A stretch of DNA of 64,000 nt from Candidatus Moraniibacteriota bacterium (GCA_049303905.1 JBAQNP010000039.1:36682-100681); one strand, 5' to 3'. Shown: positions 5,263 through 24,126, numbered from the stretch's first letter. A program made the numbers and translations. The notes: a model not told the origin generated them from the sequence alone.

Positions 5263-6383
5263 AAAAAATACTTTTAGTAACAAGACCAATTGCCCCACCC
5301 TGGGACGAAGGTTCGAAAAATTTTGCTTTTTATTTGGCAAAAAATATTCAAAACGAAAATTTGGAAATTAATTTAATGGGGAAGAACGATTTATCTGATT
5401 TGCCAGAAAATGTCCGCCTTCATAAAGTCTATACAACTTCTGAAATTTACCAATTTAATTTTTTGCAAAAACTTCGCGCCCTTCTTTTTCAATTCAAAAC
5501 CAAGGGCCAGTTTGATATTAATCACTATTTTTTCACTCCGACAAAACTCAATTCATTTCTCATTAAATATTTTCTGAAATCTAAAAAAACCAAAACTGTC
5601 CAAACTATCGCCTCTCTTCGTGATGATCTTTGGTCATCGGATGATATCAAAAAACTTATGTTTGCCGATCTCATCATCACCTATTCTGATTATGCTAAAA
5701 ATAAACTCGGGCTTTTGGGATTTCAAAATGTCAAAAGAGTTTACCCGGGAATTGATTTGAAAAAATATCAACCGCAAGAAAAAAACCTTGAACTTATGCA
5801 AAAAAATAATATCTCAAAGGATGACTTTGTGATAAATTTTTCCGGCGAATATGTGCGCCTCGGGGCAATTGATTTGATTATTGATAGTTTTATTGAAATT
5901 TCTAAAAAAATTCCCGAGGCTAAATTAGCTTTAGCAGTCAGAATTAAAAACGAAAAAGACGCTCAGAAAAAAGAAGCGGTCATGGAAAAAATCAAGAAAA
6001 ATAATCTTCTGGAGAAAGTTTCCTTTTTTGATGATGGGAAATATAATATACTGGAAGTCTACAATCTCTGCGACATCAGTCTTTTTCCAGTGCAAAATAT
6101 GCACGGAAAATTTGACATTCCCCTAGCAGTCATTGAAGCAATGGCCTGTGAAAAACCAGTCATTTTTTCAGACCTAGAAATTTTAAAAGAATTGGGAAAG
6201 AATGATAATTCTGTTATAATTGAAAAAGATAATCAAAAACAATTAACTAATGCGATTTTTGATTTATATCAAGACAAAGAAAAGCGCGAAAGATTAGGAA
6301 AGAATGCCAGGAAATATGTCCAAGAAAATTTCGATATTCAAAAAATCGCTGGAATTTATGAAGAAATTTATAAAACTTTATGA
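5259..6383 (+). CDS. GT4 family glycosyltransferase
   Basis: C-terminal LAVIEAMACEKPVIFSD...NARKYVQENFD, typical GT4. The start overlaps the previous stop by 4 nt. Confidence 0.75.
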   Translation: MKKILLVTRPIAPPWDEGSKNFAFYLAKNIQNENLEINLMGKNDLSDLPENVRLHKVYTTSEIYQFNFLQKLRALLFQFKTKGQFDINHYFFTPTKLNSFLIKYFLKSKKTKTVQTIASLRDDLWSSDDIKKLMFADLIITYSDYAKNKLGLLGFQNVKRVYPGIDLKKYQPQEKNLELMQKNNISKDDFVINFSGEYVRLGAIDLIIDSFIEISKKIPEAKLALAVRIKNEKDAQKKEAVMEKIKKNNLLEKVSFFDDGKYNILEVYNLCDISLFPVQNMHGKFDIPLAVIEAMACEKPVIFSDLEILKELGKNDNSVIIEKDNQKQLTNAIFDLYQDKEKRERLGKNARKYVQENFDIQKIAGIYEEIYKTL

Positions 6384-7708
6384 AAAAATATACCCTAGAA
6401 AATATTTCGCCTAACAAAAAAAGTTTTCAAACGGAAAAAATGAAAGTGCCGGCTATTTTGTTTTCCGGTGAAAGAGATTTTTCGCAGAGCGATGTTTTGG
6501 AAAAAGTTGAAGCCATAGCAGAGAGAAAAAATGTTTTTGAAAATATTGCCGTTCTTAGTGAAGCGCACACTAAACCAAATATTGAAAACCCGACTGGTTC
6601 CGTGGTCGCTTCAGAAAACATAATTCCGGAGATGATTGATGCCGCCACTAATTGCGGAATGCGAATTATTTTGACCGATCTAAGTGAAAATGAATTAACC
6701 GCACACAACATAGAAAATCTTTTCTCAGAATTCAAGAAGAATATTCCCTCAAAAAAAATAATCGGTACAAAAATTTCCAAACAGATGGTAGCAGATATTT
6801 TTCAATTCGGTAGCAAAGCTCTGGAAAAAGTTTTCTTAATTAACACAAAAAATGAATTTGAAAATACTTTTTCTCAGGGTAATTTTTTTGCGGACAAAGA
6901 GATATCCTCAGAAGAAATATCCGGCGCTGTTCCAAGGATTGTTTCTTGGATTGCCAAATTTCGATTGGGACTCCTTGGAGCAACCAATAGCCATTTTATT
7001 TATCTTATGAAAGTTTCTTCTATTGAAGATGAAAATTTAGCTAAATTACTTGGAGTTAAAAAAGATCAATATTTATTTTTTATGCACACCGGCTCAAGTA
7101 TTGTCGGACGATACACTGCTTCGCTTTATACCAAAAGAAAAATCAAAAGCTTTTCCCAAAAAATAATTCTCTTTTTGATAAGATTATTCTCCACTTCAAT
7201 TGAAAAAGATAACCGCCAGAAAATTACTACCGCCTTTCGTGCTACAGGAAACTATGGCTTTGCTAATCGAACGCTAATAACTTGCGAGATCCACACGGCT
7301 TTGGAAAAAATATTTGCTAGAACAGTTTCAACTGAACTTCTCTATGACGCTCCCCATGTCTATTTTGAAAAAGAATCACATTTTGGAAAAGAAGTCATTA
7401 TTCATCGAAATGGCGCTAATCGAGCCCTTGGGCCTTCAAAAATGGCTCTTCATGCGGTTTTTTCTCAAACTGGCGAACCAGTGCTGATTGCCCCCTTTGC
7501 CAAGAAAATTGCCTACATTGGAGTTGGGACCGATCAAAATGAAGAAACGTTTTTTTCCGCTAATCATGAAATTGGAAAAATAAAAGAATTGCAAATTCCA
7601 GAAGAAAAATCCCTCGAATACGCTGAAAAAATAGTTAGTGAAATGGAAAGAAATAAAATAATAAAATTAGTGGCAAAATTAGAAACGGTAGAAATTTTAA
7701 CATACTAA
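6380..7708 (+). CDS. rtcB: RtcB-family protein (RNA 3'-phosphate ligase family), divergent active-site motifs
   Basis: Motifs align to RtcB: ATNCGMR (cf. DI/NCGxR), GATNSHFIY (cf. GSGNHF), FMHTGSS (cf. HSGSRG), GNYGFANR (cf. NYAxANR), YDAPHVYFEKE...IIHRNGANRA (cf. YDxxHN...VHRKGATRA), and a C-terminal IIKLVAKLE tail. The canonical STCHGAGR reads SANHEIGK. Confidence 0.65.
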   Translation: MKKYTLENISPNKKSFQTEKMKVPAILFSGERDFSQSDVLEKVEAIAERKNVFENIAVLSEAHTKPNIENPTGSVVASENIIPEMIDAATNCGMRIILTDLSENELTAHNIENLFSEFKKNIPSKKIIGTKISKQMVADIFQFGSKALEKVFLINTKNEFENTFSQGNFFADKEISSEEISGAVPRIVSWIAKFRLGLLGATNSHFIYLMKVSSIEDENLAKLLGVKKDQYLFFMHTGSSIVGRYTASLYTKRKIKSFSQKIILFLIRLFSTSIEKDNRQKITTAFRATGNYGFANRTLITCEIHTALEKIFARTVSTELLYDAPHVYFEKESHFGKEVIIHRNGANRALGPSKMALHAVFSQTGEPVLIAPFAKKIAYIGVGTDQNEETFFSANHEIGKIKELQIPEEKSLEYAEKIVSEMERNKIIKLVAKLETVEILTY

Positions 7709-7713
7709 AAATA

Positions 7714-7862
7714 GGACTTACACATTTGATTGTGGAAAAGATATTAACGCAGTCGCCAGAAAAATATTTTCATGTAAACAATCTCTAATTACTGGCAAAT
7801 TATTAAATTTTATAATTACTTTCGCGACGAGCATATCTTGACGCAAGCAAATGTGTGAGTCC
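7714..7862. mobile_element. 149-bp MITE-like element with 15-bp terminal inverted repeats
   Basis: GGACTTACACATTTG (7714-7728) against CAAATGTGTGAGTCC (7848-7862), 14 of 15 complementary. Flanked by a TAAAATA-like direct repeat (7706-7713 and 7863-7870); AT-rich interior. Confidence 0.4.
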
Positions 7863-7871
7863 TAAAATAAC

Positions 7872-8504
7872 ATGAAATTAATCACGATCTCCGGCCTGGA
7901 TGGCTCTGGAAAATCCACCCAAATAAATCTGCTAAAAAATTATCTCGAATCGCAAAATAAGCGGGTCTTTTATTTTCATGCCATAGAATTTGGCATTGCC
8001 AAAAAAATTGTCAATTTTCGAAATAAGTATTGCCTGATTTGCCGCTTAACTGGAAAATGCAAAGTTTACAAAGAGAAAAGCGTCACTCATGCCAATTGGT
8101 TTCAAATATTTCTAAGAAAGATATTTTTAAAAATTGACATTTATCGTTTTGAAAAATTATATAAGAAATTAGAAAAAGAAGGTTTTGATTACATATTGAG
8201 CGATAGGTTTTTTCATGATTCAATTATAAATATTTGGTATTTAGAAAATTCTAAAATTGAAAATTATGAATTAATTGAAAATTTAAAATTGAAAATTGAA
8301 AATTCTAGATTATTTTATCTCCAAACTGATCCAGCGACTATAATGTCTCGCGAGCGAAAACCCGATCAAGGAATTGCATATCTTAAGAAGAAAAAAGAAT
8401 TATACGAAACAAAAATCTCTGCTTGGAATATAAAAACCATTAATGGCAACAGAAACAAGGAAGAAATTTTTGAAGAGATAAAAAAAATGATAGACCACTT
8501 ATGA
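7872..8504 (+). CDS. thymidylate-kinase-like P-loop nucleotide kinase
   Basis: ISGLDGSGKSTQ P-loop of the Tmk type and an LSDRFFHDS (DRY-like) motif; 210 aa. Confidence 0.55.
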   Translation: MKLITISGLDGSGKSTQINLLKNYLESQNKRVFYFHAIEFGIAKKIVNFRNKYCLICRLTGKCKVYKEKSVTHANWFQIFLRKIFLKIDIYRFEKLYKKLEKEGFDYILSDRFFHDSIINIWYLENSKIENYELIENLKLKIENSRLFYLQTDPATIMSRERKPDQGIAYLKKKKELYETKISAWNIKTINGNRNKEEIFEEIKKMIDHL

Positions 8505-9991
8505 CTAATGATAAATTTGCCAAAATTGGCGAGAAAAAACAATCTGTAGTCTCTTCAATTCTCTGGTTGGCTATCGCGGAGATATTTTTCAATTTTTCCG
8601 GCTATATAATCCACGCCTTCCTCGGTAGAATGCTGGGGCCGGCGGATTATGGACGCTATGGCCTAGTTGTCACGCTCACCACCATGATTATAATGCTCAT
8701 TGGAAATGGCATCCCAACAGCTATGAGTAAATATATTAGTGGTTTTTTTGAAAGCCAACCAGGGCTCGTGCTAAGTGTCAAAAAAAAGGCAGCTATTTTG
8801 CAATTTATCCTGATTGGATCTATCACTATAATATTTTTCCTCTTGGCTCCTGTGCTATCTTTTGTTTTGCGTGATCCGACACTTACTCCGCTTTTTCGCA
8901 TTTCTTCCTTGATTATCCCCTCTTTTGCCGCCGCTTCTTTCTATCTCTACTATTATATCGGCATTCATCGCTTCAGCTTACAATCCACACTAAAAATAGT
9001 CCGCTCTTTTGCTAGAATAATTTTTGTTGTTGGACTAGCTTATTTTTTCGGCCTGAAAGGCTCAATTTCTGGATATATTCTGGCGCCAGCAACAGTTTTT
9101 TTGACTGCCTATCTGATTGATAAATTTTTCATCAACCGACACTTTCCCAAAGACAATACTGATTTTTTCGATTGGAAAAAACTAGTCAATTATGCTTGGC
9201 CAGTCACGCTATTTATGATTTTTTATGAACTTCTAATTTCCTTGGATCTATATTTAGTCAAAGGAATACTTGCCAATGATCATTTAACCGGAATTTATAA
9301 CGCCTCACTCACTGTCGGTCGAATCCCCTATTATTTGTTCTATGCCCTCACACTCGTCATGCTTCCGTCAATTTCCCGAACAACTTCTCAAAATAAACAC
9401 GAGGAAACAAAAAAAATAATGACCGAGACTTTCCGGTTGATGTTTATGATTTTAATTCCAATCATAATTCTTATGGTTGTTTATGCTGAACCTCTCATTA
9501 AGTTATTTTTCGGCTCACATTATGCTGATTCAGTTATCCCAATGCAAATTTTGGCGCCAGGAGTTGGATTTCTCACAATTTTCTATATCCTAAGTTTTGC
9601 TTTAAATGGAGCTGGGAAAGTCAAAATTCCAATGTATATTGCGCTTTTTGGAATGATATTGAACGGCGGACTAAATTATGTTATGATTTTGAAGCTTGGA
9701 ATTTCTGGCTCAGCCACCGCCACCTCTATTGTTTCAGTTATAATTACCGCGATAATTTTGCTCTACGCACTGAAATATTTCGGCCGATTCATTCAGATAA
9801 AAAGCGTAACGAAGATACTTCTTGCCGGAATTGCCATGTTTTTTGCCTCGAATTTTTTCCTTCCGCAAGAATGGATTTTCATCCTTTGGGGCGCTATCCT
9901 TTGTGCCATCTATCTTCTTGTTCTGATTATCCTCAAGGAATTTACTATAAATGATTTTAATTTTTTCAAAAAAATACTACTCAAAAAATAA
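8501..9991 (+). CDS. polysaccharide/oligosaccharide flippase (Wzx-like, MOP superfamily)
   Basis: 496 aa, about 14 hydrophobic helices. The N-terminal pattern ...AIAEIFFNFSGYIIHAFLGRMLGPADYGRYGLV is typical of Wzx/polysaccharide biosynthesis protein family. Confidence 0.7.
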   Translation: MTNDKFAKIGEKKQSVVSSILWLAIAEIFFNFSGYIIHAFLGRMLGPADYGRYGLVVTLTTMIIMLIGNGIPTAMSKYISGFFESQPGLVLSVKKKAAILQFILIGSITIIFFLLAPVLSFVLRDPTLTPLFRISSLIIPSFAAASFYLYYYIGIHRFSLQSTLKIVRSFARIIFVVGLAYFFGLKGSISGYILAPATVFLTAYLIDKFFINRHFPKDNTDFFDWKKLVNYAWPVTLFMIFYELLISLDLYLVKGILANDHLTGIYNASLTVGRIPYYLFYALTLVMLPSISRTTSQNKHEETKKIMTETFRLMFMILIPIIILMVVYAEPLIKLFFGSHYADSVIPMQILAPGVGFLTIFYILSFALNGAGKVKIPMYIALFGMILNGGLNYVMILKLGISGSATATSIVSVIITAIILLYALKYFGRFIQIKSVTKILLAGIAMFFASNFFLPQEWIFILWGAILCAIYLLVLIILKEFTINDFNFFKKILLKK

Positions 9992-9996
9992 ATTAT

Positions 9997-11034
9997 ATGA
10001 GTGAACTGGAGGAAATAAAAATAAAATCCAAGAAAAATCACCTGTGGCCTGTTTTTTTGATTATGGCGGTGCTTTTTTTGATTTTTTTCTCACAATATCC
10101 AATCAATTTGAAAACATTTTTCAGCGCCGGATCAACAGAAAATCAAACTGAAATTAAACAAGAACAACCCAAGATAACTTTGGAAGAAATTTCGGAAATA
10201 ACTAATACTACTCCAACAGAGGAAGCTCAAGGCGCGGGAAATAGTGAAGAAAATATTGTTTCAGAAGAAGTTATAAAAGAAGATTCTCCAAAGGAAGATG
10301 AAGAAAAAGAAGAAATTCCTAGGGCAGATTTAGTAATCGGACTTATCGCCGATGCGCATACTGGACAAAATAATGGCTTCTCTCATCTAAGCTATGTTCT
10401 TTTATCACTCAAAAAATATTCGGCGCCGGATATTGTTGTCGATCTAGGAGATCTCATTGAAAGTCGAAATGACGGATTTATTTCCAAGAAGAAAGCTATA
10501 GCTGATTACAAAAAAGCCAATTCTATGATTACTGCTTCTTTTCCAGTTTATCATGTCCTTGGCAACCATGAACTTCTTAGCCTAAGTAAAGACGACGTCA
10601 ATGATTTAAGGGGACGAAAAAATTATTACGCAGTCACTGTCAAGAATGGATATCGACTGATTGTTCTAGACGCAAATTATACTGACACAGAAGAACATAT
10701 TGACGCTAAGCACGCCGATGACTTCATCTATACCGGCACTCTTTCAAACAGACAGCTCAGTTTATTAGAAAGTGAATTGAAAAAAAATGAAAAAAATTTG
10801 ATTTTCATTCATCACCCTCTTTGGAATTTGACTAACAAAAATGAAGTTTCCAGAATTCTCAAAAAATATAAAGACAAAATAGTTATGACTGCCAACGGAC
10901 ACAAACATCCCTTGGAAATACAAGTAATTGATTTTGGTGGAGTAAAAAACTACAATATCCCTTCAGCCTTCCATCAAAAGGCCTACGCCGTAGCCAGAAT
11001 AAACGGTCTTGAGGTTCAGGTGAGTAATAAATAG
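9997..11034 (+). CDS. membrane-anchored calcineurin-like metallophosphoesterase
   Basis: N-terminal TM helix plus acidic linker, then MPE motifs DAH, GDLIE, GNHE, IHHP, GHKH. Confidence 0.8.
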   Translation: MSELEEIKIKSKKNHLWPVFLIMAVLFLIFFSQYPINLKTFFSAGSTENQTEIKQEQPKITLEEISEITNTTPTEEAQGAGNSEENIVSEEVIKEDSPKEDEEKEEIPRADLVIGLIADAHTGQNNGFSHLSYVLLSLKKYSAPDIVVDLGDLIESRNDGFISKKKAIADYKKANSMITASFPVYHVLGNHELLSLSKDDVNDLRGRKNYYAVTVKNGYRLIVLDANYTDTEEHIDAKHADDFIYTGTLSNRQLSLLESELKKNEKNLIFIHHPLWNLTNKNEVSRILKKYKDKIVMTANGHKHPLEIQVIDFGGVKNYNIPSAFHQKAYAVARINGLEVQVSNK

Positions 11035-11037: not shown

Positions 11038-13212
11038 TTATTCAAGTGTCAGTATATCATAAGTTTTTTCATCCATATCTAACTGCAAAAGAACTCTATA
11101 GTCTACATTATCTATTTTTGTCCTAAAATCACCAGTATGCCAATGCCCAGAATAAACATAAGCCACTCCATTGTTATTAAATAATTCAACAAGCTCCTTA
11201 TTCCTTTCACGTATTTCCTTTTTTCCATTGTCGTTTTTAAAAACTGGACAATGCAAAAATACAATCTTTTTCTTGCTTGTTTCTAAAGATTTTTTAAGCC
11301 AATTCATTTGTTCTTCATCAACTTCCACGCATTCGTAATCATAACCATCACTGTCTCCAATTTTTAGATTATACAGAGCAATCATTCTCCAATTTCCATA
11401 ATCTGTATAAAAATATTTTTGATCTTCCAAGTATATATTTCCGTCATGATTTCCATTGACCCAAATAAAATCTTTTCCTGATTGCTTTTCATATTCTTTT
11501 AATAAGTTAGACATTTCATAGCTTGGTCGTTGTTGATTGTCCCCTGTCATTATTATAAATTTAGAGTTGATTGATTTCCCAACTAAATAATCGAGTTTTT
11601 CTTTCCATTTTCTCGGGTCATATTCCTCTCCCTCTGCAAGTTCTTTTCCAGCATGTAAATCAGTCGCAATGGTTATTTGAAATTTTCTATCTCCCCATCG
11701 ATAAACACTCCCATTCCCTATTCCCTCAATTTCTATTTTTTCTAAATTACTCTCTATGTATTTCAAGGCACCTTTTTTTATATTCTTCTTGTCGTCTTCA
11801 GAAAAAACAATCCATCCGCCTGGATTAGTTGAAATAATTTCCTGAAGTTTTTCCAATGACAAGGGGGTTCTTTTTGTATCGGTCGCAATAGGATACACTT
11901 TTATATTCTGCCCTCTCCAGTAATAGTTCCGCCCTCTTCGGGTTATAAGGGCATCATCCTTGTTTCTATTCTGAACAACATAACCATATATTTTTTTATA
12001 ATCCATTTCATCTTTTAGATAATTCCTATATAAACCATCGACACTAAAAAAATAAAAATAATTAGGAATCAAAAGAAGTAAAAGAATAAATGGCACAATA
12101 AAAGATTTCTTATCTCCCTTAAATCTATTTTTAATAAAACTTGAAAAATAATAAACTCCTGAGGAAAGTAAGATTATTTCAAAAGGTTTTATCAGATACA
12201 GATAGCGAACATTGGGTCTATGAGTCCAAAGAAAAACTGCCGCCAAAAGAATAACAAAGTATGAAAGTCCGACCCAAGTCATTTTTTTTCTTAAATTTTC
12301 CTCCCTTAATGAAAAATATAATCCAAAAATAATAAACAACAAAGATATCCAGTAAGAATTATAATCTATGGCTATTTTCTCAAAATATGAGAAATTATCC
12401 ATAAAAAATTCAATGTGTCCCAAACCTTTTATTATTATTTTATTTTCAAAAAATAAATAAGAGACAATGACCGAAACAGCACCGCTTGCTAGTATTATAA
12501 AATATTTATTTAAAAAATATTCCTTATCCTTAATAGAAAAATATAATTGAACAACCAAATAAGAAATAACTACTGGCGCAATATTAAGTGCGATTGCATG
12601 AATCTTTAGACTCACTAAGCCCAAAGTAATCACCGGAATAAACCATAAAATATTTAAGCCAGTTTGAGTATTTATTTTTTTTAAAATACTATTATTTCCC
12701 TTGTATTTCTCTTCTAAAAATCTAAATAAGGAGAATGAGAAAAGAAGAAAAATTGGAATAAACATAGCATACATTCGAAAAGTTCGATCAGCCTGAATTG
12801 AACAAATGTTAACTGCCAAGAAAAAAGCACTTAGAACTCCAATTATTTTTTTTCCGGAAAAATATGAACCGACAAAATAAATTGAAATAATTGAAATCAT
12901 CCCCCAGAAAATACTAATCAGACGCACTGACATTTCATTTAGTGGAAATACTTTCAATAATTGAGCAGTTTGCCAACGATAAACTATTGTGCGGTTATCT
13001 CGAGTTTTTTTTATATCCTCTACACTTGGAGCTTCAATATTGAAATCCCAAGCATGCCAATTTCCGGTTTTATGATATCCATAAGTTGCGTTAATATCTA
13101 AAAATTCATCAATCGCCAGAGTTGTCTCTCCTATTTTATGAAAACGTAAAAAAAATCCTAACGCCAATATAAGAACTATTGCAAAAATTATAATTTTTTT
13201 TTCTTTTTTCAT
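11038..13212 (-). CDS. fusion protein: GT-C-like polytopic membrane domain (DE motif) + C-terminal calcineurin-like metallophosphoesterase domain
   Basis: N-terminal ...AIDEFLDINATYGYHKTGNWHAWDF plus more than 10 TM helices, paralogous to the two downstream genes. C-terminal DLH, MTGDN, GNHDG, LHCP, GHWH motifs. Confidence 0.7.
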   Translation of the reverse strand: MKKEKKIIIFAIVLILALGFFLRFHKIGETTLAIDEFLDINATYGYHKTGNWHAWDFNIEAPSVEDIKKTRDNRTIVYRWQTAQLLKVFPLNEMSVRLISIFWGMISIISIYFVGSYFSGKKIIGVLSAFFLAVNICSIQADRTFRMYAMFIPIFLLFSFSLFRFLEEKYKGNNSILKKINTQTGLNILWFIPVITLGLVSLKIHAIALNIAPVVISYLVVQLYFSIKDKEYFLNKYFIILASGAVSVIVSYLFFENKIIIKGLGHIEFFMDNFSYFEKIAIDYNSYWISLLFIIFGLYFSLREENLRKKMTWVGLSYFVILLAAVFLWTHRPNVRYLYLIKPFEIILLSSGVYYFSSFIKNRFKGDKKSFIVPFILLLLLIPNYFYFFSVDGLYRNYLKDEMDYKKIYGYVVQNRNKDDALITRRGRNYYWRGQNIKVYPIATDTKRTPLSLEKLQEIISTNPGGWIVFSEDDKKNIKKGALKYIESNLEKIEIEGIGNGSVYRWGDRKFQITIATDLHAGKELAEGEEYDPRKWKEKLDYLVGKSINSKFIIMTGDNQQRPSYEMSNLLKEYEKQSGKDFIWVNGNHDGNIYLEDQKYFYTDYGNWRMIALYNLKIGDSDGYDYECVEVDEEQMNWLKKSLETSKKKIVFLHCPVFKNDNGKKEIRERNKELVELFNNNGVAYVYSGHWHTGDFRTKIDNVDYRVLLQLDMDEKTYDILTLE

Positions 13213-13230
13213 TTTATTATTATGCTTTAA

Positions 13231-14754
13231 TTATTTTCCCCAATGATAAATTGAAATGGAAGTAGGAATTTTTTTACTTTCAATCTTTTCAAGATTTTCT
13301 TTCAGATAATCCCGACCATCCTTACAAACAAAAACCTCGTCAATTTTCGGCAGAATAAATAGACCGCTTGGATTTTCAGCAATTGTTTTTTTCACAAATT
13401 CCAAACAATCTTTCTTCTCAAACGGCAATGTTTGCAGATCCAAAACTTTCACATCATCTCCGCGCCAATAATAACTGCGATAGGCTCGAGTGACAAGCAC
13501 GTCTCCATCTTTTTTGCTTTCCAAAATATGCGGAAAAATATTTTTAAAATCAGGATAATATGAATTTTTAGTATGAACATAGACATTGTTTTCTTTTTTG
13601 AAATAGGAAAAATCAAAAAGAGCCAAAAAAGCCATCAGAAAAACAATCGTCGCGATCATTCCTTTTTTCCCAAAACAACTTCGAATATAAATAGCCATTG
13701 CGTATACTCCGCCAGCAATCAGAATTGCTCCAAAAGATTGAATAAAATAAATATAGCGCTCAGAAGGAGTTCTAACCCAAGTAAAAATCGCAAACGTCAG
13801 CGGAACGAAAGCGGAAACAAAAAGAAAAACAGCTTCTTTTTTTCTCTCTAATTTTTTGAATAAATACCATGCTCCAATAAGCGCGAGAATAAAGGCGACA
13901 ATTGGCAAGTGAAAATCATTAAAATAATCAAAAAAATAGCGGGGATTAAATTCGAACAAAGCTACTTGTTTCTTGAAAGATTTGTAGAATTTAGCCAGAC
14001 TTGGCAATTGACTCACCGCGAGATACGTGGCAAGAATAAGCGCCAGAGTAATTGAGTATTTATTTATCTTATTTTTTTTCTCCCAAATAACCCAACCCGA
14101 AAAAGAAAAGGCTACTATGGTAAAAATAATATTAGCTGTGAGCATATGGACATTATAGCTAATAAATCCTGCCATAAGTGTCGGCAAAAAATAGAAAAAA
14201 TTGACATTAAATTTTTCAGAAATAAATTTGAACAATTTATTTTTCCCGACATATTTCGCTTCATAAAATTGATAGACTAACCAAGAAAAAATCAAATAGA
14301 CCGGAAAGAGCATTGAATACATTCGCAGACGCCGGCTATAAATTATTCCAGATTCTCCAATCGAAACCAGAAGTGCCGAAAGAAGTGCAATCCAATAATT
14401 ACCGGTAAAATATAGAGCGATAAAATAAACCGCCAAAATACTCAGTAGCCCCCAAAAAACACTCACGACGCGACTTGAGCTTTCGGTCGGTTCAAAAAAT
14501 TGGTAAATCTTTGCCAATTGCCAACGATAAATTTCTGCCCGTTCAGTGCTGGTTTCATCTTGAAGTTTTCCGCTAAAAGGTTTTTCACTTCCAAAGTCCC
14601 ATGCCACCCAATTGCCGGTTTTGAAATATCCATACGACGCATTAAGTTCAAAAAATTCATCCCGATCAAAAGAAGTATTTCCTAGATTATAAATCCGCAG
14701 TCCCGCGCCTAAAAAGATAATTAAAAATAACAATGCCAGTGATTTTTTTTTCAT
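13231..14754 (-). CDS. GT-C-like polytopic membrane protein (paralog 2 of tandem triplet)
   Basis: FDRDEFFELNASYGYFKTGNWVAWDF; the same architecture and conserved blocks as the 11038-13212 and 14774-16318 proteins; C-terminal soluble domain ending IYHWGK. Confidence 0.6.
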   Translation of the reverse strand: MKKKSLALLFLIIFLGAGLRIYNLGNTSFDRDEFFELNASYGYFKTGNWVAWDFGSEKPFSGKLQDETSTERAEIYRWQLAKIYQFFEPTESSSRVVSVFWGLLSILAVYFIALYFTGNYWIALLSALLVSIGESGIIYSRRLRMYSMLFPVYLIFSWLVYQFYEAKYVGKNKLFKFISEKFNVNFFYFLPTLMAGFISYNVHMLTANIIFTIVAFSFSGWVIWEKKNKINKYSITLALILATYLAVSQLPSLAKFYKSFKKQVALFEFNPRYFFDYFNDFHLPIVAFILALIGAWYLFKKLERKKEAVFLFVSAFVPLTFAIFTWVRTPSERYIYFIQSFGAILIAGGVYAMAIYIRSCFGKKGMIATIVFLMAFLALFDFSYFKKENNVYVHTKNSYYPDFKNIFPHILESKKDGDVLVTRAYRSYYWRGDDVKVLDLQTLPFEKKDCLEFVKKTIAENPSGLFILPKIDEVFVCKDGRDYLKENLEKIESKKIPTSISIYHWGK

Positions 14755-14773
14755 ATTTTTTTACCTTTAATTA

Positions 14774-16318
14774 TTACCAGCGATAAATATTCACGCCTCT
14801 CACCTGTGAATCTATTTTTTCCAAGTTTTCTTCCAGATATATTCGACCATTTTTGCAAACTGAGAGATGGTCAATCTCCGGCAAAACCACCATCCCACTT
14901 TCATTTTCAGAAATTATCTTGGCAAATGTTTCATCACAATTTTGTTTTTCCAACGGCAAAACTTTCACATCCAAAACCTTAACTTTCCAATCGGAAAAAT
15001 AGAAACTGCGATAAGCTCTTGTCACTAAAACATCCTCTGGTTTCAAATTATCCTTCACAACCGCAAAAACTTCTCTAAAATCAATGAAATTTGAAGATTG
15101 TCTTTGCTGATACAAATTATTATTACCGATAATATGTGAGTAATCAAGCGAGAAAAACATCAAAGTCGAAACGATCAGTGCAATTATCTTTTTATGGTTT
15201 TTGAATTTTTTAGCTAAAAAATAATAAAGCGCATAAATTCCAACGGCAGAAAAGATAATCCCGAATGATTGGATAAAATAGATATAGCGTGAAGCCGGTT
15301 CCCTTACCCAGGAAAAAACTGCATAGAAAAGCGGGACCATTGCCGAAAGGAAAATAAACAAAGCTTCCTTTTTGCGCTCAAGCCTAAACGCCAAGAACCA
15401 CCCACCTAAAAAGAAAAGCGCTATTCCTACGACGAGATATCTAAAATCAGTAAAAAAATATTCGATACTTCTGTAGTTGTCTTGCCAAAAACTTACCGCC
15501 TTATCAAAATCCTTATAGACTCCCCTAAAAAATATTTTCAAGAAAATAACGCCCGCTATCGCACCAAAAATAGTCAAAAAATATTTATTCAAAAAAATAT
15601 TTTTTTCTTTTTTCCAACTAAGCATCGCCCAAATGAAACAATATGCAATCAAAGAAAAAGCGATATGCACACTTAGCTCTTGAATTTCATAACTCACAAA
15701 ACCAACCAATGCCGTTGGCAAAATAAAATTTGGGTTGACTTTGAATTTTTGGTAAATTTTTTGGAAAAAAATTATCTTGCCCCTATAGGCAGATTCATAA
15801 AACTTAAATAGGCACCAAGAAAAAATGAGATAGATTGGAAATAGCATTGAATACATTCGAAGTCGTCGGCCAAAAATAATTTCCGACTCTCCAATAGCCA
15901 CCAGAAGTGCCGCCAGAAGTGCCACATAAAAATTTCCGGTAAAAGACAAAGTCACAAAATATATCGCGATAATACTCACGATCCCCCAAAAAACACTGAT
16001 AAGACGCGCGTTGCCTTCGGTTGGATGCATGACATTATACGACAATGCTAATGGAATTCGGAAAAGCTGGGCGCGAGTGTTACTATAATCTTTCTGTAAA
16101 GACGGTTCCAAGGGTTGATCTAAATTAAAATCCCACGCCAACCACTCCCCTGTTTTGAAATATCCATATGAGGTGTTGATATCAAAAAATTCATCGCGAG
16201 CAAAAGCTTCATCGTTCAATTTATATAAACGCAAAAAACATCCTATCAAAATAATAAGAAACAACACCGCAAGAAATCCATTTTTTTTTCTGCCTTTTAT
16301 AAACAATGCTTTTGACAA
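14774..16318 (-). CDS. GT-C-like polytopic membrane protein (paralog 3 of tandem triplet)
   Basis: FARDEFFDINTSYGYFKTGEWLAWDF; shared blocks RLRMYSMLFP, YIYFIQSFG and LVTRAYRS with its neighbours. Confidence 0.6.
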   Translation of the reverse strand: MSKALFIKGRKKNGFLAVLFLIILIGCFLRLYKLNDEAFARDEFFDINTSYGYFKTGEWLAWDFNLDQPLEPSLQKDYSNTRAQLFRIPLALSYNVMHPTEGNARLISVFWGIVSIIAIYFVTLSFTGNFYVALLAALLVAIGESEIIFGRRLRMYSMLFPIYLIFSWCLFKFYESAYRGKIIFFQKIYQKFKVNPNFILPTALVGFVSYEIQELSVHIAFSLIAYCFIWAMLSWKKEKNIFLNKYFLTIFGAIAGVIFLKIFFRGVYKDFDKAVSFWQDNYRSIEYFFTDFRYLVVGIALFFLGGWFLAFRLERKKEALFIFLSAMVPLFYAVFSWVREPASRYIYFIQSFGIIFSAVGIYALYYFLAKKFKNHKKIIALIVSTLMFFSLDYSHIIGNNNLYQQRQSSNFIDFREVFAVVKDNLKPEDVLVTRAYRSFYFSDWKVKVLDVKVLPLEKQNCDETFAKIISENESGMVVLPEIDHLSVCKNGRIYLEENLEKIDSQVRGVNIYRW

Positions 16319-16372: not shown

Positions 16373-18205
16373 ATGCTAAAAATCACCGCAAAAAACAAAG
16401 CCTACAAAAACATAAAATTTGCTTTTTTGTTTCTAATCGTCTATGCAATTTATTTTTCTTTTGGGTTTCACCACCTATCTCAATTTCAAACTGCCGATGA
16501 ACATTTGTGGATAGGAGAAAGAGTTTACACCTATTGGCATAGCCTCAATCCTAAAAATTGGTCCGACACAGTATTAAGCGACAAACCAGGTATATCGACA
16601 GCTCTAGTATCAGGAATTACGCTTTTTTGGGAAAAAAATCCGCAAAAAGATATTAGCAATATATTGAAAGTTGAATCTCTATATAAATCTTTTCGCCTGC
16701 CTTTTCTTTTCTTTAACGCTTTTTTTATGCTTTTTATTTTTTGGCTGATAAAAAAAATAACCCAAAATTTCTGGATTTCCTTTTGGTCTTTTTCTTTAAT
16801 GCTTCTTTCTCCTATTCTTTTAGGAATTTCACAAATTATTAATCCTGATTCATTATTCTGGCTTTTTTCGACAGCCACGCTCTTGAGTTTTATAGCTTAT
16901 TTAGAAACAGAAGAAAAAAAATTCATAGTTTTAGCGCCAATTTTTCTTGGATTGTCTCTTTTGACTAAATTTGTAAGTGTTATATTTTTCCCCTTTCTTT
17001 TTATCACTACTCTTATTTTTTGTCTATTAAATATTCCGAAATGGAAAGCGGATAAAACACCAATCAATAAGAAAATAATAAGAATTTCTATTTTTTATCT
17101 AACAACAATCATTGGATCACTCGCGGTTTTTTCCCTTTTTATGCCAGCGGTTTTTCTTGATAAACAACTTTTTTTTGATTATACAATTGGATATTCTTCG
17201 ATGAAAAAAATATTGCCACTCATACTTATTTTGCAATTTTTTCTCATTTTTGATGCTGTCAAATTAAAAAGTGAGATATCTCTCAAAATAATAAACTTTA
17301 TTCCTAAAAAATTCGAGGATATTTTTAGATTTCTTCCTCTACTATTATCACTAACTTTTATAGCAGTTATCATAAACTGGAACACGAATTTATTATTCTT
17401 AAATCCTGAGAATATCGTGAAGTATGCCACTCGCTCATCTGACTTTACCAAAGATTCTTTATTTTTAGAAAAATTACTATATCAATTTTATTCTTTCGTT
17501 TTTTCTCTTACTCCGCTTGTCATTATATTTCTACTATTTATTTGGATAAAACAAATATTCAAGAAAATAGATCTGATTTTTACCTCAATTATTCTTCAGT
17601 TATTTATAGTCGTTTTTTATTTCGCTTTAATTGCCGAAAAACTTCCCTCCACTGTTCGCTATAGCATCATTCTCTACCCACTCGCCTCAATTTTAGCTTC
17701 TTTTGGTATTTTTGAATTTTTTTCTCATAATAAACTAAAAAACATTAATAAAATTTATGTTTCACTAGCTATTATTGCCATAAGTTTTCTGAGTCTTTGG
17801 CAAATCAAACCTTTTTATTTCAGCTATATAAATTCCTTGCTTCCGGAGAAATACATTCTTTCGGGCGCTTGGGGCTATGGCGGATATGAAGCGGCTCAAT
17901 ATCTAAATTCATTACCAGACGCAAAAAATTTAGTAGTGTGGTCAGACTATGGCGGTTTTTCCAAATTTTTTCAAGGCACCACATATAGAGATTATATTTT
18001 AAAAAAAGATTTTAAGCCTGTGGAATATTATGTAATCTCTCAACAAGGAAAAATGATGTACGATTATTGGTGTAATAAAAGAAAAAGTACGTGTCAAAGA
18101 AAATATATTCCGCTGAATAATTTCCTGGAAACAAAAACTCCCGTTTGGGAAATGTATATCGGCGGAAGGCCGGATAATTTTATAAAAATATATAAAGCGG
18201 AATAG
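16373..18205 (+). CDS. GT-C fold membrane glycosyltransferase candidate (ArnT/PMT-like)
   Basis: 610 aa, polytopic; TADEHLW (DE) motif in the first extracytoplasmic loop, followed by a soluble C-terminal domain. Confidence 0.5.
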   Translation: MLKITAKNKAYKNIKFAFLFLIVYAIYFSFGFHHLSQFQTADEHLWIGERVYTYWHSLNPKNWSDTVLSDKPGISTALVSGITLFWEKNPQKDISNILKVESLYKSFRLPFLFFNAFFMLFIFWLIKKITQNFWISFWSFSLMLLSPILLGISQIINPDSLFWLFSTATLLSFIAYLETEEKKFIVLAPIFLGLSLLTKFVSVIFFPFLFITTLIFCLLNIPKWKADKTPINKKIIRISIFYLTTIIGSLAVFSLFMPAVFLDKQLFFDYTIGYSSMKKILPLILILQFFLIFDAVKLKSEISLKIINFIPKKFEDIFRFLPLLLSLTFIAVIINWNTNLLFLNPENIVKYATRSSDFTKDSLFLEKLLYQFYSFVFSLTPLVIIFLLFIWIKQIFKKIDLIFTSIILQLFIVVFYFALIAEKLPSTVRYSIILYPLASILASFGIFEFFSHNKLKNINKIYVSLAIIAISFLSLWQIKPFYFSYINSLLPEKYILSGAWGYGGYEAAQYLNSLPDAKNLVVWSDYGGFSKFFQGTTYRDYILKKDFKPVEYYVISQQGKMMYDYWCNKRKSTCQRKYIPLNNFLETKTPVWEMYIGGRPDNFIKIYKAE

Positions 18206-18227: not shown

Positions 18228-20309
18228 TTATTTCCTATTCTTCTCTTTCAAGTAGTACGGCACTGCAAAAAAACTCACCAGCATTTGCAAAAATCTTCCA
18301 AAGATTGCGATGGAAATGGCTGCTTCACCATCCACGCCAAAAATTCCAAAAAAAGCAATAAAGGACCATTCCTTAATACCGATATTACCAATACTCACAG
18401 GAATTGAAGAAGCAATGCTAATAATTGAGATGGCAATCATGAAATTAACAAAACTGATTGGGATATGCAGATCTAAAAATAGCATCCAAGTCGCTAAGCT
18501 CACTCCGACAAAATTAAAAATCATTCCCCAGGCCAAAGATTTTGTCAAAATTTCATTTCGTTGATAGGATAATATCTCCTGAATAATTTTGACTATTTTT
18601 TCCGGCAAGAATTTTTTCACTCCTTGCCAAATTGTCAATCGACGAATGATTATGAGCAAAAAATTAGCCACAAAAAAAAGAATGATTCCAATGTTTATCC
18701 CCAAAAGAAGATTACTCTCAAAAACAGTTTTTAAATTAAAAAGACTGAAAATTAGAATCAGCATCATTACACCAGCAAAACCTGTGATGCGATCAACTAA
18801 GACGGTCGAAGTGGCTTCTAAATATTTTCCACCTTCTGACTTACCAAGGGTATAGGAACGATAGGTGTCTCCGCCGATGATAGACGGAAAAAAATTATTT
18901 ATAAAAGCCCCGGTTAGATAAATTTTGAAAAGATCTTGGAATTTCATCTTAAATCCCTTAAAGTCAGCCAGAATTTTCCATTTATAGGAAGAAATTGCAA
19001 TTCCAAAAGCATAAATCAAAACAAAAGCTCCCATCCACCAAATATCCATTTTTTCAAAATATCCCAAAACCTCTTGCCAATCAACCTTGAAAAAAATCCA
19101 AGTCAAGAAAGCCGTCATAAAAACAAGCTTGAAAATAAATTTAATTTTGCTTTTATTTTGCTTTGGCGTTTCTTTTTTCTTTGAAACTTCTTCTAGAATT
19201 TCAAAATATTTTTTGGCGTTTTCACTCCAAGACATTTCTTCTGCCAACTTCCGACTCTTCCCAGACATTTCTTGGCGCAAATTTTCATCACTGATAATTT
19301 TCTCCAGAGAATCATAAATATCCTGGGAATTTTTTTTTCTTATGATAAAACCATTTCCACTCATTAGCTCAGCCGCTCCCGTATCAGTGGTTATAATTGG
19401 AAGTCCTGAGGCAAGGGCTTCTTGCGTCACATTGCCCAAGGCTTCACTTAATGACGGAAGTAGAAATATATGGGATTTTTGATAAATCCCAGCAATTTCA
19501 TCATGATTCACAATTCCCAAAAAAACAACTTTTTCTGACAAATTATTTTTTCTGACAAATTTTTCATATTCATCCTTCATTGGCCCTTCGCCCACAATAA
19601 GCAATCTAGCATTTGGATATTTTTTTGACAAATCTCGAAAAGCCGACAATGCATAGATTGCTCCTTTTCTTTCAATCAACCTTCCCACAAAAAGAATATT
19701 GAAAGTTTCTTCTTTTTTCAAAATTTCTTCATTTGGACAAAATTCTTTCGTATTTATTCCATTCCTAATGATTATTATTTCTTGATCGCCGGAGGTTTTT
19801 TTCGCTAAATTCGAAAGATCATTGCTTAGCGCCACTACTTTTTCTGCCTCCTTCCATATTTTTTTGCTCATCCGCCGAAAAAAAAGTTTATCCAAAAAAT
19901 TGAATCGTTCATTGTAGAATGGCACATCGCTTCCGCGAAGACTCACAATATACGGCAAGTCCAATTTTTTGGCAATATATCCACAAGGAATTCCAAAAAA
20001 AGCTAATGTAGCGTCAAATTTTTCTTTTTTATTCAATTTTTTAGAAAACCAATAGGCTTTCCAAGAATACACCAGTAAATCCCTATTTGTTTGAAAATGC
20101 ATTTTAGAATTACTTTTTCCAATTGGCAATTTATGAATTCGAATATTCTCCCCTATTTTTTCCAAATGATATTTCCTATCAGCCGATGACGTGACTAAAT
20201 CTACCCGGAGATCGGGAATTTTAGAAAATTCTTGCAGAAGATAGAACACGGCATTGCCCGCTCCTCCACCGAGTGGCGGATATTCATAATTCAAAATTAG
20301 TATTCTCAT
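18228..20309 (-). CDS. fusion: GT4 glycosyltransferase + C-terminal lysylphosphatidylglycerol-synthase-TM / UPF0104 flippase-like membrane domain
   Basis: N-terminal MRILILNYEYPPLGGGAGN...GNVTQEALASGLPIITTDTG (GT4); C-terminal 300 aa polytopic, with FFPSIIGGDTYRSYTL typical of PF03706-like domains. Confidence 0.65.
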   Translation of the reverse strand: MRILILNYEYPPLGGGAGNAVFYLLQEFSKIPDLRVDLVTSSADRKYHLEKIGENIRIHKLPIGKSNSKMHFQTNRDLLVYSWKAYWFSKKLNKKEKFDATLAFFGIPCGYIAKKLDLPYIVSLRGSDVPFYNERFNFLDKLFFRRMSKKIWKEAEKVVALSNDLSNLAKKTSGDQEIIIIRNGINTKEFCPNEEILKKEETFNILFVGRLIERKGAIYALSAFRDLSKKYPNARLLIVGEGPMKDEYEKFVRKNNLSEKVVFLGIVNHDEIAGIYQKSHIFLLPSLSEALGNVTQEALASGLPIITTDTGAAELMSGNGFIIRKKNSQDIYDSLEKIISDENLRQEMSGKSRKLAEEMSWSENAKKYFEILEEVSKKKETPKQNKSKIKFIFKLVFMTAFLTWIFFKVDWQEVLGYFEKMDIWWMGAFVLIYAFGIAISSYKWKILADFKGFKMKFQDLFKIYLTGAFINNFFPSIIGGDTYRSYTLGKSEGGKYLEATSTVLVDRITGFAGVMMLILIFSLFNLKTVFESNLLLGINIGIILFFVANFLLIIIRRLTIWQGVKKFLPEKIVKIIQEILSYQRNEILTKSLAWGMIFNFVGVSLATWMLFLDLHIPISFVNFMIAISIISIASSIPVSIGNIGIKEWSFIAFFGIFGVDGEAAISIAIFGRFLQMLVSFFAVPYYLKEKNRK

Positions 20310-20315: not shown

Positions 20316-21302
20316 TTATAAATTGATAAAAGAAGTCATTGATTTCTGGCCTTTAATTTTGATTATCGCGTATTGTTTTTTAATATTAAGCGATGGCATG
20401 TCAATATAATCAATACCAGCGAAGGTCGAACTTTTAGCCGTATGTTTATGACCGCTCGCAATCAAAATCACTTTATCCTTGTATTTTGTAAGCAATTCTT
20501 CAATTTCAATACTGTTTAACAGGCCGTATAAAGGATGATGAATAAAAATTATGTTCTGATTATTTTCTTGGAGTTTTTCTTCTAACCATTTTTTTTCTTT
20601 TTCCGGAATAAATCCGGCGTAAGCTCCCGGTTTTTCTCTGTCTCTTTCAACATCTTCACCTGTAGGAAACCAATAATTGGCATCTAAGACTATAATTTGA
20701 TAATTTTTTGCCATGAAAGAATAGTAACTGTCAGAACCAATAAGTTTTTCATAATCCTTTTTGCGCAAACTAAACATTTCATGATTTCCCGCTACATGAT
20801 AGCGCGGCTCAAAACCCAATAGACTTTCATCAGCCCTTTTCCATTCAGCAATACCTTCCGCTATTGGCTGTTTGCCATTTCCATCAACATTCCTATTCTC
20901 AATAAAATCACCCAGCTCAATGATAAAATCCGGTTTTTCTGGATTAGCTTCTCCTTTTTCTTGTATATGCACTTCTTTGGCAAATTTCGCTATCATTGAA
21001 TAGATACTTCCTTCAGCATGAGAATCTGACATCACTCCAATGACAAGATCCGATCTTCTCTTTGTCATATTTTCACTAACAAAATTTTCATCTACTCCAC
21101 TTGAAATATCAATATTGTTTTGAAATTGATTTGGATAAGTTTTTTTCGAATTAAAACTAAAACTAAAAATTGCAACTACAAGAGCAATTGCAATAATAAG
21201 AATAAGTAATATTATCTTTGCTTTTTTTCTATTTTTTAAGATAAATTCTTTGAAATTTTTAATTTTCAGATTCTTAATTTTATCAATTATTTTTTTCTTC
21301 AT
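20316..21302 (-). CDS. membrane-anchored calcineurin-like metallophosphoesterase
   Basis: TM anchor; motifs MSDSHAEG, GDFIE, GNHEM, IHHP, GHKH all intact. Confidence 0.8.
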   Translation of the reverse strand: MKKKIIDKIKNLKIKNFKEFILKNRKKAKIILLILIIAIALVVAIFSFSFNSKKTYPNQFQNNIDISSGVDENFVSENMTKRRSDLVIGVMSDSHAEGSIYSMIAKFAKEVHIQEKGEANPEKPDFIIELGDFIENRNVDGNGKQPIAEGIAEWKRADESLLGFEPRYHVAGNHEMFSLRKKDYEKLIGSDSYYSFMAKNYQIIVLDANYWFPTGEDVERDREKPGAYAGFIPEKEKKWLEEKLQENNQNIIFIHHPLYGLLNSIEIEELLTKYKDKVILIASGHKHTAKSSTFAGIDYIDMPSLNIKKQYAIIKIKGQKSMTSFINL

Positions 21303-23660: not shown

Positions 23661-23690
23661 GACATTCATGAAACATGAAACATGTAGCAT
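23658..23690. repeat. Heptad CATGAAA element, copy 2 (opposite orientation to copies 1, 3 and 4)
   Basis: Plus strand reads CATGACATTCATGAAACATGAAACATGTAGCAT. It lies between the ugd start and the stop of the four-helix-bundle gene. Confidence 0.55.
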
Positions 23691-23700: not shown

Positions 23701-24069
23701 TTAGGATTTATCTTCTATTCCCTTAATTGTTGTCCACAACATCGCTCCAATTTCTTCAGCTAAATTAATTAATTTTTTATAATCTTCTTCCTTAATATAC
23801 CCTTCTCTTTCTGAAAAATATAATAAATATTTTGTTTCCTTTAGTGATCCATAAGACATCTGTAAAAAATATTTCAACTGATTATCCCCTAGTCTTGCAT
23901 AACCTTCGATATAATTCAACACTACCGATAAAGATGCTCTGCGTAATTGAGAAGTAATCCCGTAAATTTCTTCTTTTGGAAAAGTTTTCGTAACTCTGTA
24001 TGAGAGATAGGCAAACTCATCTAATTTCTTTTTTAATATTTTATGAAAAGTTTCCTTATCCTGTTTCAT
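23701..24069 (-). CDS. four-helix-bundle protein (23S rRNA intervening-sequence protein family, PF05635-like)
   Basis: 122 aa; SYRVTKTFPKEE...QLRRASLSVVLNYIEGYAR...fits the TIGR02436/PF05635 pattern. Confidence 0.7.
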   Translation of the reverse strand: MKQDKETFHKILKKKLDEFAYLSYRVTKTFPKEEIYGITSQLRRASLSVVLNYIEGYARLGDNQLKYFLQMSYGSLKETKYLLYFSEREGYIKEEDYKKLINLAEEIGAMLWTTIKGIEDKS

Positions 24070-24126
24070 GTTTTTGTATTTTGTATTTTGTCTTATGCTT
24101 CATGTTATATGTTTCATGCTTCATGA
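24064..24126. repeat. Heptad CATGAAA element, copy 3
   Basis: Minus strand reads TTCATGAAGCATGAAACATATAACATGAAGCATAAGACAAAATACAAAATACAAAAACATGAAA (7-nt period). It overlaps the last codons (HEA stop) of the GT2 gene and sits directly 5' of the four-helix-bundle gene ATG. Confidence 0.55.

Follow-up and report, generated by a model that had tools for sequence, protein, structure and literature searches.

A tandem array of GT-C-like genes

The window, a stretch of 64,000 nucleotides (nt) from a Candidatus Moraniibacteriota bacterium (GCA_049303905.1 JBAQNP010000039.1:36682-100681), carries on its minus strand, between positions 11,038 and 16,318, three consecutive genes for polytopic membrane proteins that resemble glycosyltransferases (GTs) of the GT-C fold. 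We call them C, B and A in their order of reading; the genes, their first-loop Asp-Glu (DE) motifs and the two modules of A are as follows.

14774-16318, minus strand: paralogue C, GT-C-like polytopic protein of 514 amino acids (aa) with a TTG start, opening the operon-like array C-B-A; 728 bits on the family hidden Markov model (HMM)
16190-16195, minus strand: DE motif of C, D42-E43, in loop 1
13231-14754, minus strand: paralogue B, GT-C-like protein of 507 aa with about 11 transmembrane (TM) helices and a C-terminal alpha/beta domain (residues ~400-507)
14656-14661, minus strand: DE motif of B, D32-E33, in loop 1
11038-13212, minus strand: gene A, 724 aa, a GT-C module and a metallophosphoesterase (MPE) module
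13105-13110, minus strand: DE motif of A, D35-E36, in loop 1
11689-13212, minus strand: GT-C module of A (aa 1-508), of a fourth paralogue type, A'; 66% identity to the A' gene of L003 (L003_2513)
11038-11688, minus strand: MPE module of A (aa 509-724 and the stop codon), fused in frame to the A' GT-C and predicted to be extracytoplasmic

All three open reading frames (ORFs) are intact and lie exactly where the initial annotation had placed them. The TTG start of C has AAGGG upstream, and the gaps between neighbours are 19 and 18 nt, a spacing that, with the single direction, is consistent with transcription of C-B-A as one unit. B is identical in sequence to P0001, a protein of a Moraniibacteriota metagenome-assembled genome (MAG) at NCBI; P0059, from the same 118-kb contig of that MAG, is likewise identical to a window protein. 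The size of about 500 aa given in the initial annotation fits B and C but not A. The conserved soluble C-terminal domain that it described is present in all three, and B ends in IYHWGK and C in IYRW; in A, however, the corresponding VYRWG is internal (residues 503-507), and a complete additional enzyme domain, which had been missed, comes after it.

The proteins are similar over their full length. By BLASTP, B and C share 47.5% identity over 509 aa (E 4e-155), A and B 32.3% over 493 aa (E 5e-85), and A and C 33.1% over 513 aa (E 1e-77), whereas shuffled-sequence controls reached at most 33.5 bits. The three-way alignment holds 116 invariant columns, including DEF, YGYxKTG, WDF, FWG and RMY as well as motifs of the soluble C-terminal domain. 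On the family HMM A, B and C score 588-746 bits and all other ORFs of the window, five further polytopic membrane proteins among them, at most 7 bits; on a broader family profile the best of these other ORFs reaches 8.8 bits. The reading that the similarity reflects only the hydrophobic composition shared by polytopic proteins is refuted by these E values and controls, by the charged and aromatic invariant motifs in loops and soluble domain, and by the failure of the other membrane proteins on both profiles. A, B and C are full-length, anciently duplicated paralogues, as the initial annotation had proposed.

Fold, motifs and topology

An AlphaFold2 model of B built from a 54-sequence alignment (pLDDT 90.2, pTM 0.89) shows a long first loop with two helices ahead of the remaining TM helices and the alpha/beta domain. 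In a Foldseek search of the PDB, places 1-34 for this model were all taken by GT-C enzymes (E to 4e-8, TM-scores 0.52-0.60), namely AglB (E 4e-8), STT3, ArnT (E 1e-6), PglB, AftA, Pmt4, DPY19, ALG9/12, AftD, EmbA-EmbB, AftB and Pmt1-Pmt2, followed by unrelated transporters at TM-scores of about 0.13. The AlphaFold2 model of A, with a pLDDT of about 90 over the GT-C module, gave the same outcome for residues 1-508, with GT-C enzymes only. The models thus support assignment of A, B and C to the GT-C fold, class A, which unites enzymes like the oligosaccharyltransferases (OSTs), ArnT and PMT.

Sequence profiles point the same way from a greater distance. A profile of A, B and C alone had no match among PDB sequences even at E 10, and only a 62-sequence profile including distant relatives reached ArnT (E 0.0037 over 57 residues), yeast Pmt1 (E 0.0058) and Pmt2 (E 0.024), the invariant R95 of the family (B numbering, here and below) aligning with Pmt1 R138. 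Pfam PMT_2 is matched by 15 of 50 family members at E<=0.01 (best 1.9e-6). An exhaustive profile search found 4,171 relatives at E<=1e-3, with a core family of about 30 representatives at 50% identity, each above 400 bits, and a shell of full-length relatives at E 1e-40 to 1e-58, of which those tested were mostly above the Pfam threshold for PMT_2 or PMT. The source names of the relatives are 'ArnT-like', 'phospholipid carrier-dependent glycosyltransferase' and 'glycosyltransferase family 39 protein'. No NCBIfam model fits the GT-C part of A, B or C, and the three are peripheral PMT_2/PMT relatives rather than members by the curated Pfam criterion. The original description as GT-C-like is borne out by the fold and by the matches to ArnT, Pmt1 and PMT_2, and the proteins are best described as a divergent, phylum-restricted branch of the ArnT/PMT_2-type GT-C superfamily.

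The DE motif, already recognized in the initial annotation, occurs in the first loop of A, B and C, and its D and E are each kept in 94 of 95 homologues. R72, R95, W101-G102, R144-M-Y and E165 are retained in all 95, and D32/E33, R141, D280 and R423 in 93-94. PMT-type GT-C enzymes are marked by the DE motif in loop 1 and by Pmt1 R138, both of which experiments have shown to be essential for function (PMC8698208). A, B and C each retain every invariant family residue, and none of them looks like a pseudoenzyme.

All short predicted cytoplasmic loops are rich in Lys and Arg (MKKK at the N-terminus, KKNKINK, KKLERKKE and RSCFGKKG), which points to an N-in, C-out topology like that of ArnT and PMT. 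The single-copy clade has 103 positions with at least 90% conservation, of which 75 lie outside, 28 in the membrane and none in the cytoplasm. Replacements fixed in individual paralogues affect 43 of the 75 outward-facing positions vs 7 of the 28 membrane positions (Fisher p 0.004), and they cluster beside the DE motif, in loops 1, 2 and 5 and in the C-terminal domain. This outward enrichment supports transfer to different positions or acceptors and is consistent with diverged specificities of A, B and C, which had been raised as a possibility from the sequence.

The fusion in gene A

The MPE module of A comprises 216 aa and matches Pfam Metallophos (PF00149) at residues 512-693 (E 6e-13; 50.1 bits against a cut-off of 21.5). 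Its metal motifs are intact: D518xH520, G557-D558, GNHD at 587-590 and GHxH at 689-692 (H690, H692). In the modelled structure, which is of modest confidence in this part (pLDDT 50-85), the nearest neighbours are GpdQ (2zo9; E 8e-6, TM-score 0.53), a zebrafish dimetal phosphatase, purple acid phosphatases and SMPDL3A; by sequence the module is nearest to Rv0805 (E 0.003).

The two modules of A have different closest relatives. The GT-C module is 80-87% identical to the unfused A' proteins P0204 and P0205 and only 40-41% identical to the main A-type (A-main) orthologues, which share 75-87% among themselves. The MPE module, on the other hand, is 88% identical to that of P0206, whose GT-C module is of the A-main type (41%), and 75% identical to that of the A::MPE protein of L002. 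Contig L081 carries the genes for P0205 (A', unfused) and P0206 (A::MPE) side by side. The switch point falls exactly between VYRWG and DRKFQITIATDLH. Gene A is thus a mosaic of an A'-type GT-C module and the MPE module of an A-type gene. On the simplest reading, deletion or unequal recombination between tandem paralogues probably dropped the A-type GT-C and joined A' to the MPE in frame.

Two other explanations of A were considered and rejected. It is not the orthologue of the third gene of most related genomes, given 40% identity against the 75-87% found among those orthologues. Nor is the fusion an assembly artefact, since the same architecture of C, B, A'::MPE, convergent MPE and Wzx flippase is present in the independent metagenome assemblies L082 and L083 (P0203, 83% identity).

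Distribution and copy-number history

The survey took a single genome for each GTDB species, and the family HMM was run over the 10 kb flanking each locus on both sides. The 78 loci found are essentially all in Moraniibacteriota MAGs, to which the family is confined. It is single-copy in about 68 species loci, and 2-4 tandem copies occur only in the window and in L001-L010. Genomes with several copies hold C, B, A' and A (L003), C, B and A (L001, L002, L004, L007 and L010) or one BC-type, one A'-type and one A-type gene (L009). The B, C and A-type genes form separate orthologue groups in about 10 other genomes, which agrees with the old expansion suggested in the initial annotation, and each window copy belongs to a group with 47-87% identity across genomes.

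Neighbour-joining trees with 150 bootstraps recovered the C clade (100%), a clade of B, C and the undivided BC-type gene of L009 (100%), the A-main clade (96%), the A' clade (100%) and all A-like genes together (97%). The trio of the window accordingly derives from two older splits (BC-type from A-like, and A' from A) and a younger one between B and C, and what we see is a birth-and-death family, not a single triplication. The tandem triplication of the initial annotation therefore stands as three tandem copies but not as a simple event, the lineage having four paralogue types (C, B, A' and A). Since gene order in the locus is shared throughout the phylum, the expansion took place in situ, in one slot.

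Such turnover could be taken to mean that one or more copies are decaying or non-catalytic, with no functional differentiation within the array. Birth and death is indeed evident: A' or A was lost in different genomes, L074 has a split gene, and the window bears its own deletion-fusion. Decay of the window copies is nevertheless highly improbable in view of three intact ORFs with every invariant family residue, each in an orthologue group that is conserved across genomes.

A different account makes the paralogues subunits of one hetero-oligomeric GT-C machine, the outward divergence reflecting co-evolution of interfaces and a division of labour. Known GT-C paralogues do heterodimerize, with Pmt1-Pmt2 (6p25) and EmbA-EmbB (7bvf) among the structural matches; the genes lie close together in one direction, and C, B and A-like genes are co-retained in most multi-copy genomes. 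A fixed stoichiometric complex, however, fits poorly with two to four copies and with A' and A being interchangeable across genomes. As one copy suffices in most of the phylum and all copies have the full set of catalytic motifs, we regard a hetero-oligomer as unlikely.

Metallophosphoesterases around the family

Besides the module in A, the window holds three membrane-bound MPE genes near the array.

9997-11034, plus strand: MPE1, with a single N-terminal TM helix (Pfam Metallophos E 1e-10) and all motifs; convergent with A, the stop codons 3 nt apart
20316-21302, minus strand: MPE2, membrane-anchored metallophosphoesterase in tandem with MPE3
21333-22304, minus strand: MPE3, membrane-anchored, in tandem upstream of MPE2, with degenerate metal ligands

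MPE1, MPE2 and MPE3 each have one N-terminal TM helix behind a Lys-rich N-terminus, and with the GT-C C-terminus outside, all four MPE domains are predicted to face outward. MPE2 and MPE3 are 51% identical. MPE3 has DSQ for DSH in motif I and GHKN for GHKH in motif V, a loss of two metal-ligand histidines, and may be a catalytically impaired paralogue.

Almost every multi-copy locus has an MPE gene at the array's 3' end; MPE1 is kept at the same position in L002-L005, L007, L010, L081 and L082, and L002 and L005 hold both C::MPE and A::MPE. Among single-copy loci, 10 have a same-strand MPE gene that abuts or overlaps the stop of the family gene. The fused proteins P0079 and P0083 combine a GT-C of the L060/L071 type (42-49% identity) with the adjacent MPE of that lineage (46-50%), by a fusion independent of that in the window. 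MPEs of relatives were sought with jackhmmer seeded from window sequences, which may undercount them; we attribute to profile drift, and do not count as MPE domains, its 'FUSED' calls at about residues 426-505 in A-type proteins that lack a fusion.

By the logic of gene fusion, this recurrence of fusion and adjacency supports a functional link between GT-C and MPE. The tandem expansion of GT-C genes is in itself ordinary, tandem GT-C paralogues being well known from, for example, embCAB; the one thing out of the ordinary is that the family is repeatedly fused to, or found next to, an extracytoplasmic MPE. In the literature searched, we found no description of GT-C and metallophosphoesterase pairing or fusion, the sole precedent being UpsH (YpbG) of Bacillus subtilis, which frees undecaprenyl phosphate (UndP) from teichoic acid intermediates linked to undecaprenyl diphosphate (UndPP) at the cytoplasmic face (PMC11898649). 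The GT-C family and the MPE might constitute an undescribed two-enzyme module that has undergone at least three independent fusions and whose genes are neighbours in other lineages; in it, lipid-linked glycosyl transfer would be mechanistically coupled to the cleavage of a phosphoester on the outer face. We put this forward tentatively and think it rather doubtful. The cleavage could release or recycle the polyprenyl carrier from diphosphate-linked intermediates; alternatively, it could edit phosphodiester-linked substituents of a lipoglycan resembling teichoic acid or glycosylphosphatidylinositol (GPI), of a kind not yet described in bacteria of the candidate phyla radiation (CPR).

A further B-type relative, P0044 (725 aa, from an ENA contig), carries about 225 aa of additional C-terminal sequence. 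This extension is not an MPE, having no Pfam match and no BLAST similarity to any MPE module, so that another kind of domain is fused at the same junction.

The surrounding glycan locus

The array occupies one slot of a glycan locus whose order is shared across the phylum: GtrB-like GT2, Ugd, GT4/UPF0104, PMT-like GT-C, the family gene, an MPE gene in some loci, Wzx, a thymidylate-kinase-like (Tmk-like) gene, RtcB, GT4, DUF6541 and GT4. In the window its other members include the following.

16373-18205, plus strand: D, a bona fide PMT/PMT_2 GT-C of 610 aa, divergently transcribed (Pfam PMT E 3e-11), with no detectable sequence relationship to A, B or C
8501-9991, plus strand: Wzx-type flippase for lipid-linked glycans (Pfam Polysacc_synt E 9e-21)
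18228-20309, minus strand: GT4 fused to an LPG_synthase_TM (UPF0104) membrane domain; kept in 25 of 33 loci
22323-23690, minus strand: UDP-glucose/GDP-mannose dehydrogenase (Ugd)
24114-25049, minus strand: GtrB/DPM1-type GT2, candidate polyprenyl-phosphate-sugar synthase (Glycos_transf_2 E 5e-31; TM helices 235-253 and 268-286)
782-1765, plus strand: second GtrB/DPM1-type GT2, with two C-terminal TM helices
2972-4897, plus strand: DUF6541/DUF1616 polytopic protein, a conserved locus member

In the 33 single-copy loci with full flanks, the family gene is accompanied by Wzx in all 33, by the Tmk-like gene in 32, by the PMT-like D in 31, by RtcB in 29 and by GT4 in 28. The RtcB RNA ligase and the Tmk-like gene, of which only the P-loop N-terminus matches Pfam, lie inside the glycan locus of the window at 6380-8504 (plus strand). 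A recent relationship of A, B and C to the other GT-C genes of the locus was ruled out by BLASTP and hhalign, the family profile reaching probabilities of only 1.3-1.4% against D (1.3%) and the DUF6541 protein. In L011 (4019-8189) and L024 (1590-5845) it is the D homologue that is duplicated in tandem, with the family gene in single copy; GT-C copy number therefore varies in two slots of one locus.

The flippase and the MPEs bear on another reading, in which the family acts like an OST or ligase and transfers a Wzx-flipped polyprenyl-diphosphate glycan en bloc to protein or lipid, while the MPE turns the released polyprenyl diphosphate into polyprenyl phosphate or cleaves stalled diphosphate-linked intermediates. 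The top structural matches are the OSTs AglB, STT3 and PglB, Wzx is the invariant neighbour, MPE adjacency and fusion recur, and UpsH offers a precedent for an MPE that frees UndP from UndPP-linked polymers. Yet A, B and C have no WWDxG motif, no WWD and no WW dipeptide at all, and their C-terminal domain, at about 110-125 aa, is far below OST size; on these two grounds an identity as oligosaccharyltransferases was rejected. The sequence links, moreover, lead to ArnT and PMT, which use monophosphate donors, and not to OSTs, the locus holds GtrB-type synthases of phosphate-linked sugars, and the nearest structures to the MPE are phosphodiesterases and acid phosphatases rather than known pyrophosphatases. 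En bloc transfer is thus quite unlikely.

Several other genes are interspersed in this part of the window. Two genes for 122-aa four-helix-bundle proteins of the '23S rRNA intervening sequence protein'/bAvd-like kind lie among the GT2 genes at 23701-24069 (minus strand) and 25903-26271 (plus strand), with homologues at the same place in L001 and L002, and an AAA_14/DUF4143 ATPase gene at 27589-28713 (minus strand), amid glycosyltransferase genes, looks like an unrelated insertion. Fully collinear loci of the Moraniibacteriota type also occur in many third-party MAG records titled 'uncultured Bdellovibrionales bacterium' (L009, L014, L019, L020, L025-L029 and others), probably a taxonomic mislabel.

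Proposed function and comparison with known systems

We consider it fairly probable that the three paralogues, all catalytically intact, belong to a divergent branch of PMT/ArnT-like GT-C enzymes (class A) that is specific to Moraniibacteriota, and that they face outward, use polyprenyl-phosphate-sugar donors and serve distinct positions or acceptors, with the MPEs acting on the same substrate. The gene in this slot, single in most species, was duplicated in place in the sub-lineage of the window, the BC-type and A-like genes separating first, A-like then giving A' and A, and B and C parting more recently. The GtrB-like GT2 enzymes of the locus would load sugar onto a polyprenyl-phosphate carrier. 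On the outer face, where the loop-1 Asp-Glu motif and the conserved arginines would form its active site, each paralogue would take the carrier-borne sugar and pass it to a different position or acceptor of the glycan or glycoconjugate that the neighbouring Wzx exports. In the same lipid-linked or polymer substrate, a phosphodiester or pyrophosphate may be the target of the extracytoplasmic MPEs, both the fused one and those nearby.

Several points weigh against this reading. Pfam and NCBIfam scans gave no match for B and C, and PMT_2 reached 18.8 bits on A, below its cut-off of 26.1, so that the family assignment rests on the fold and on the wider profiles. The fold leaves the donor class unfixed, because the enzymes that it matches best, the oligosaccharyltransferases, work with diphosphate-linked donors. 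The topology was assigned by hand from the AlphaFold2 helices and the positive-inside rule, with no dedicated predictor, and the enrichment of replacements on the outer side would also be expected from co-evolving subunits of a complex. All trees are neighbour-joining only; B is monophyletic at 47% bootstrap, with the root not settled, and the multi-copy paralogues together at 38%. Of the roughly 59 single-copy loci whose downstream sequence is long enough, only 10 have an adjacent MPE, which is thus not an obligatory partner. In the literature on Moranbacteria glycosyltransferases and Patescibacteria GT-C enzymes we found no paper on the family.

Among known systems the ArnT/PMT_2-type GT-C enzymes (PF13231/PF02366; GT83/GT39, including actinobacterial Pmt) are the closest. 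They have the same fold (ArnT 5f15, TM-score 0.52-0.55), and the likeness extends to the loop-1 DE motif, the arginine aligned with Pmt1 R138, about 11 TM helices, the N-in, C-out topology and weak but specific profile matches. The family differs in having its own alpha/beta C-terminal domain of about 110 aa, in the position of B and C below all curated thresholds, in its limitation to one candidate phylum and in its recurrent MPE partner. In eukaryote-type PMTs the large loop that connects TM7 with TM8 contains a MIR (beta-trefoil) domain on the luminal side; Pfam finds no MIR domain in A, B or C, and the matching loop is only about 35 residues long in the model. As in loci of ArnT (GT83) proper, Ugd and a GtrB/ArnC-like GT2 are present, but the match of A, B and C to the ArnT profile is marginal, no ArnA, ArnB or ArnD domain occurs in the scanned window ORFs, and no NCBIfam equivalog matches A, B or C. 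Patescibacteria are not known to have lipid A.

The locus also resembles three-component systems of a GtrB/CsbB-type GT2, a flippase and a GT-C (YfhO, YkcB, YkoS, GtrC) in combining GtrB-type GT2s, flippase candidates (Wzx and UPF0104) and several GT-Cs. B. subtilis keeps several paralogous GT2/GT-C pairs (PMC11898649). The window, in contrast, has five or six GT-C-like genes for two GtrB-like synthases, its GT-C copies are in tandem instead of in dispersed pairs, and no small flippase of the GtrA/GtcA type was identified in the locus. Tandem GT-C paralogues are likewise found in mycobacterial embCAB, considered with the lipomannan/lipoarabinomannan set (EmbA/B/C, AftA-D, MptA-C, PimE). The mycobacterial paralogues use polyprenyl-phosphate sugars and have distinct linkage or acceptor roles in one envelope glycan. 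Emb proteins are, however, about 1,050-1,100 aa long with large carbohydrate-binding C-terminal domains; their Foldseek matches are much weaker (E 0.009, TM-score 0.41/0.23), and there is no sequence-level relationship to A, B and C.

For the MPEs, UpsH and the eukaryotic PGAP5 (MPPE1) of GPI remodelling, which is also a metallophosphoesterase, are comparable, both being membrane-associated calcineurin-like phosphoesterases that act on lipid-carrier glycan products. PGAP5 removes ethanolamine-phosphate from a GPI mannose that GT-C mannosyltransferases attach (PMC8222316). The window MPEs differ from the unfused, cytoplasmic-face UpsH in being predicted extracytoplasmic and, in one case, fused to a GT-C, and their modules are nearest to Rv0805/GpdQ-type phosphodiesterases by sequence and structure.

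There is almost no experimental knowledge of the cell-surface glycans of CPR bacteria, which depend on cell contact. Here, a phylum-wide collinear glycan locus and a GT-C family overlooked by curated models are defined. The expansion of one slot to 3-4 paralogues in a single sub-lineage points to diversification of surface structures, and the recurrent pairing or fusion with an outward-facing MPE gives a lead to a possible new accessory activity in carrier recycling or phosphodiester editing.

Other genes of the window

Glycan-synthesis genes fill nearly the whole window. At 35631-38528 (minus strand) lies a gene for a 965-aa protein with three tandem GT2 domains (PF00535 E 8e-79, three matched stretches), followed at 38533-40998 (minus strand) by one for a protein of 821 aa in which polysaccharide pyruvyl transferase, 4Fe-4S dicluster and FrhB/FdhB C-terminal (F420 hydrogenase beta-like) domains are joined. 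A second export route is encoded at 41007-46996, with a Wzt-type ABC ATPase (41007-42314) that carries the glycan-binding domain Wzt_C, a permease of ABC-2 type (44941-45714) and another Wzx-like flippase (45704-46996), the second of the window. The 1,086-aa product of 47762-51022 (minus strand) contains a domain like lecithin:cholesterol acyltransferase (LCAT)/lipase at residues 379-632, the rest being unannotated. Finally, the 583-aa polytopic protein encoded at 58406-60157 (plus strand) matches PMT_2 below threshold (E 6e-5; 23.7 bits against 26.1) and is unrelated to the A/B/C profile; it may be a sixth GT-C-like gene product of the window, and it is flanked by ORFs (56256-57761 and 60157-61467) that have no Pfam match.

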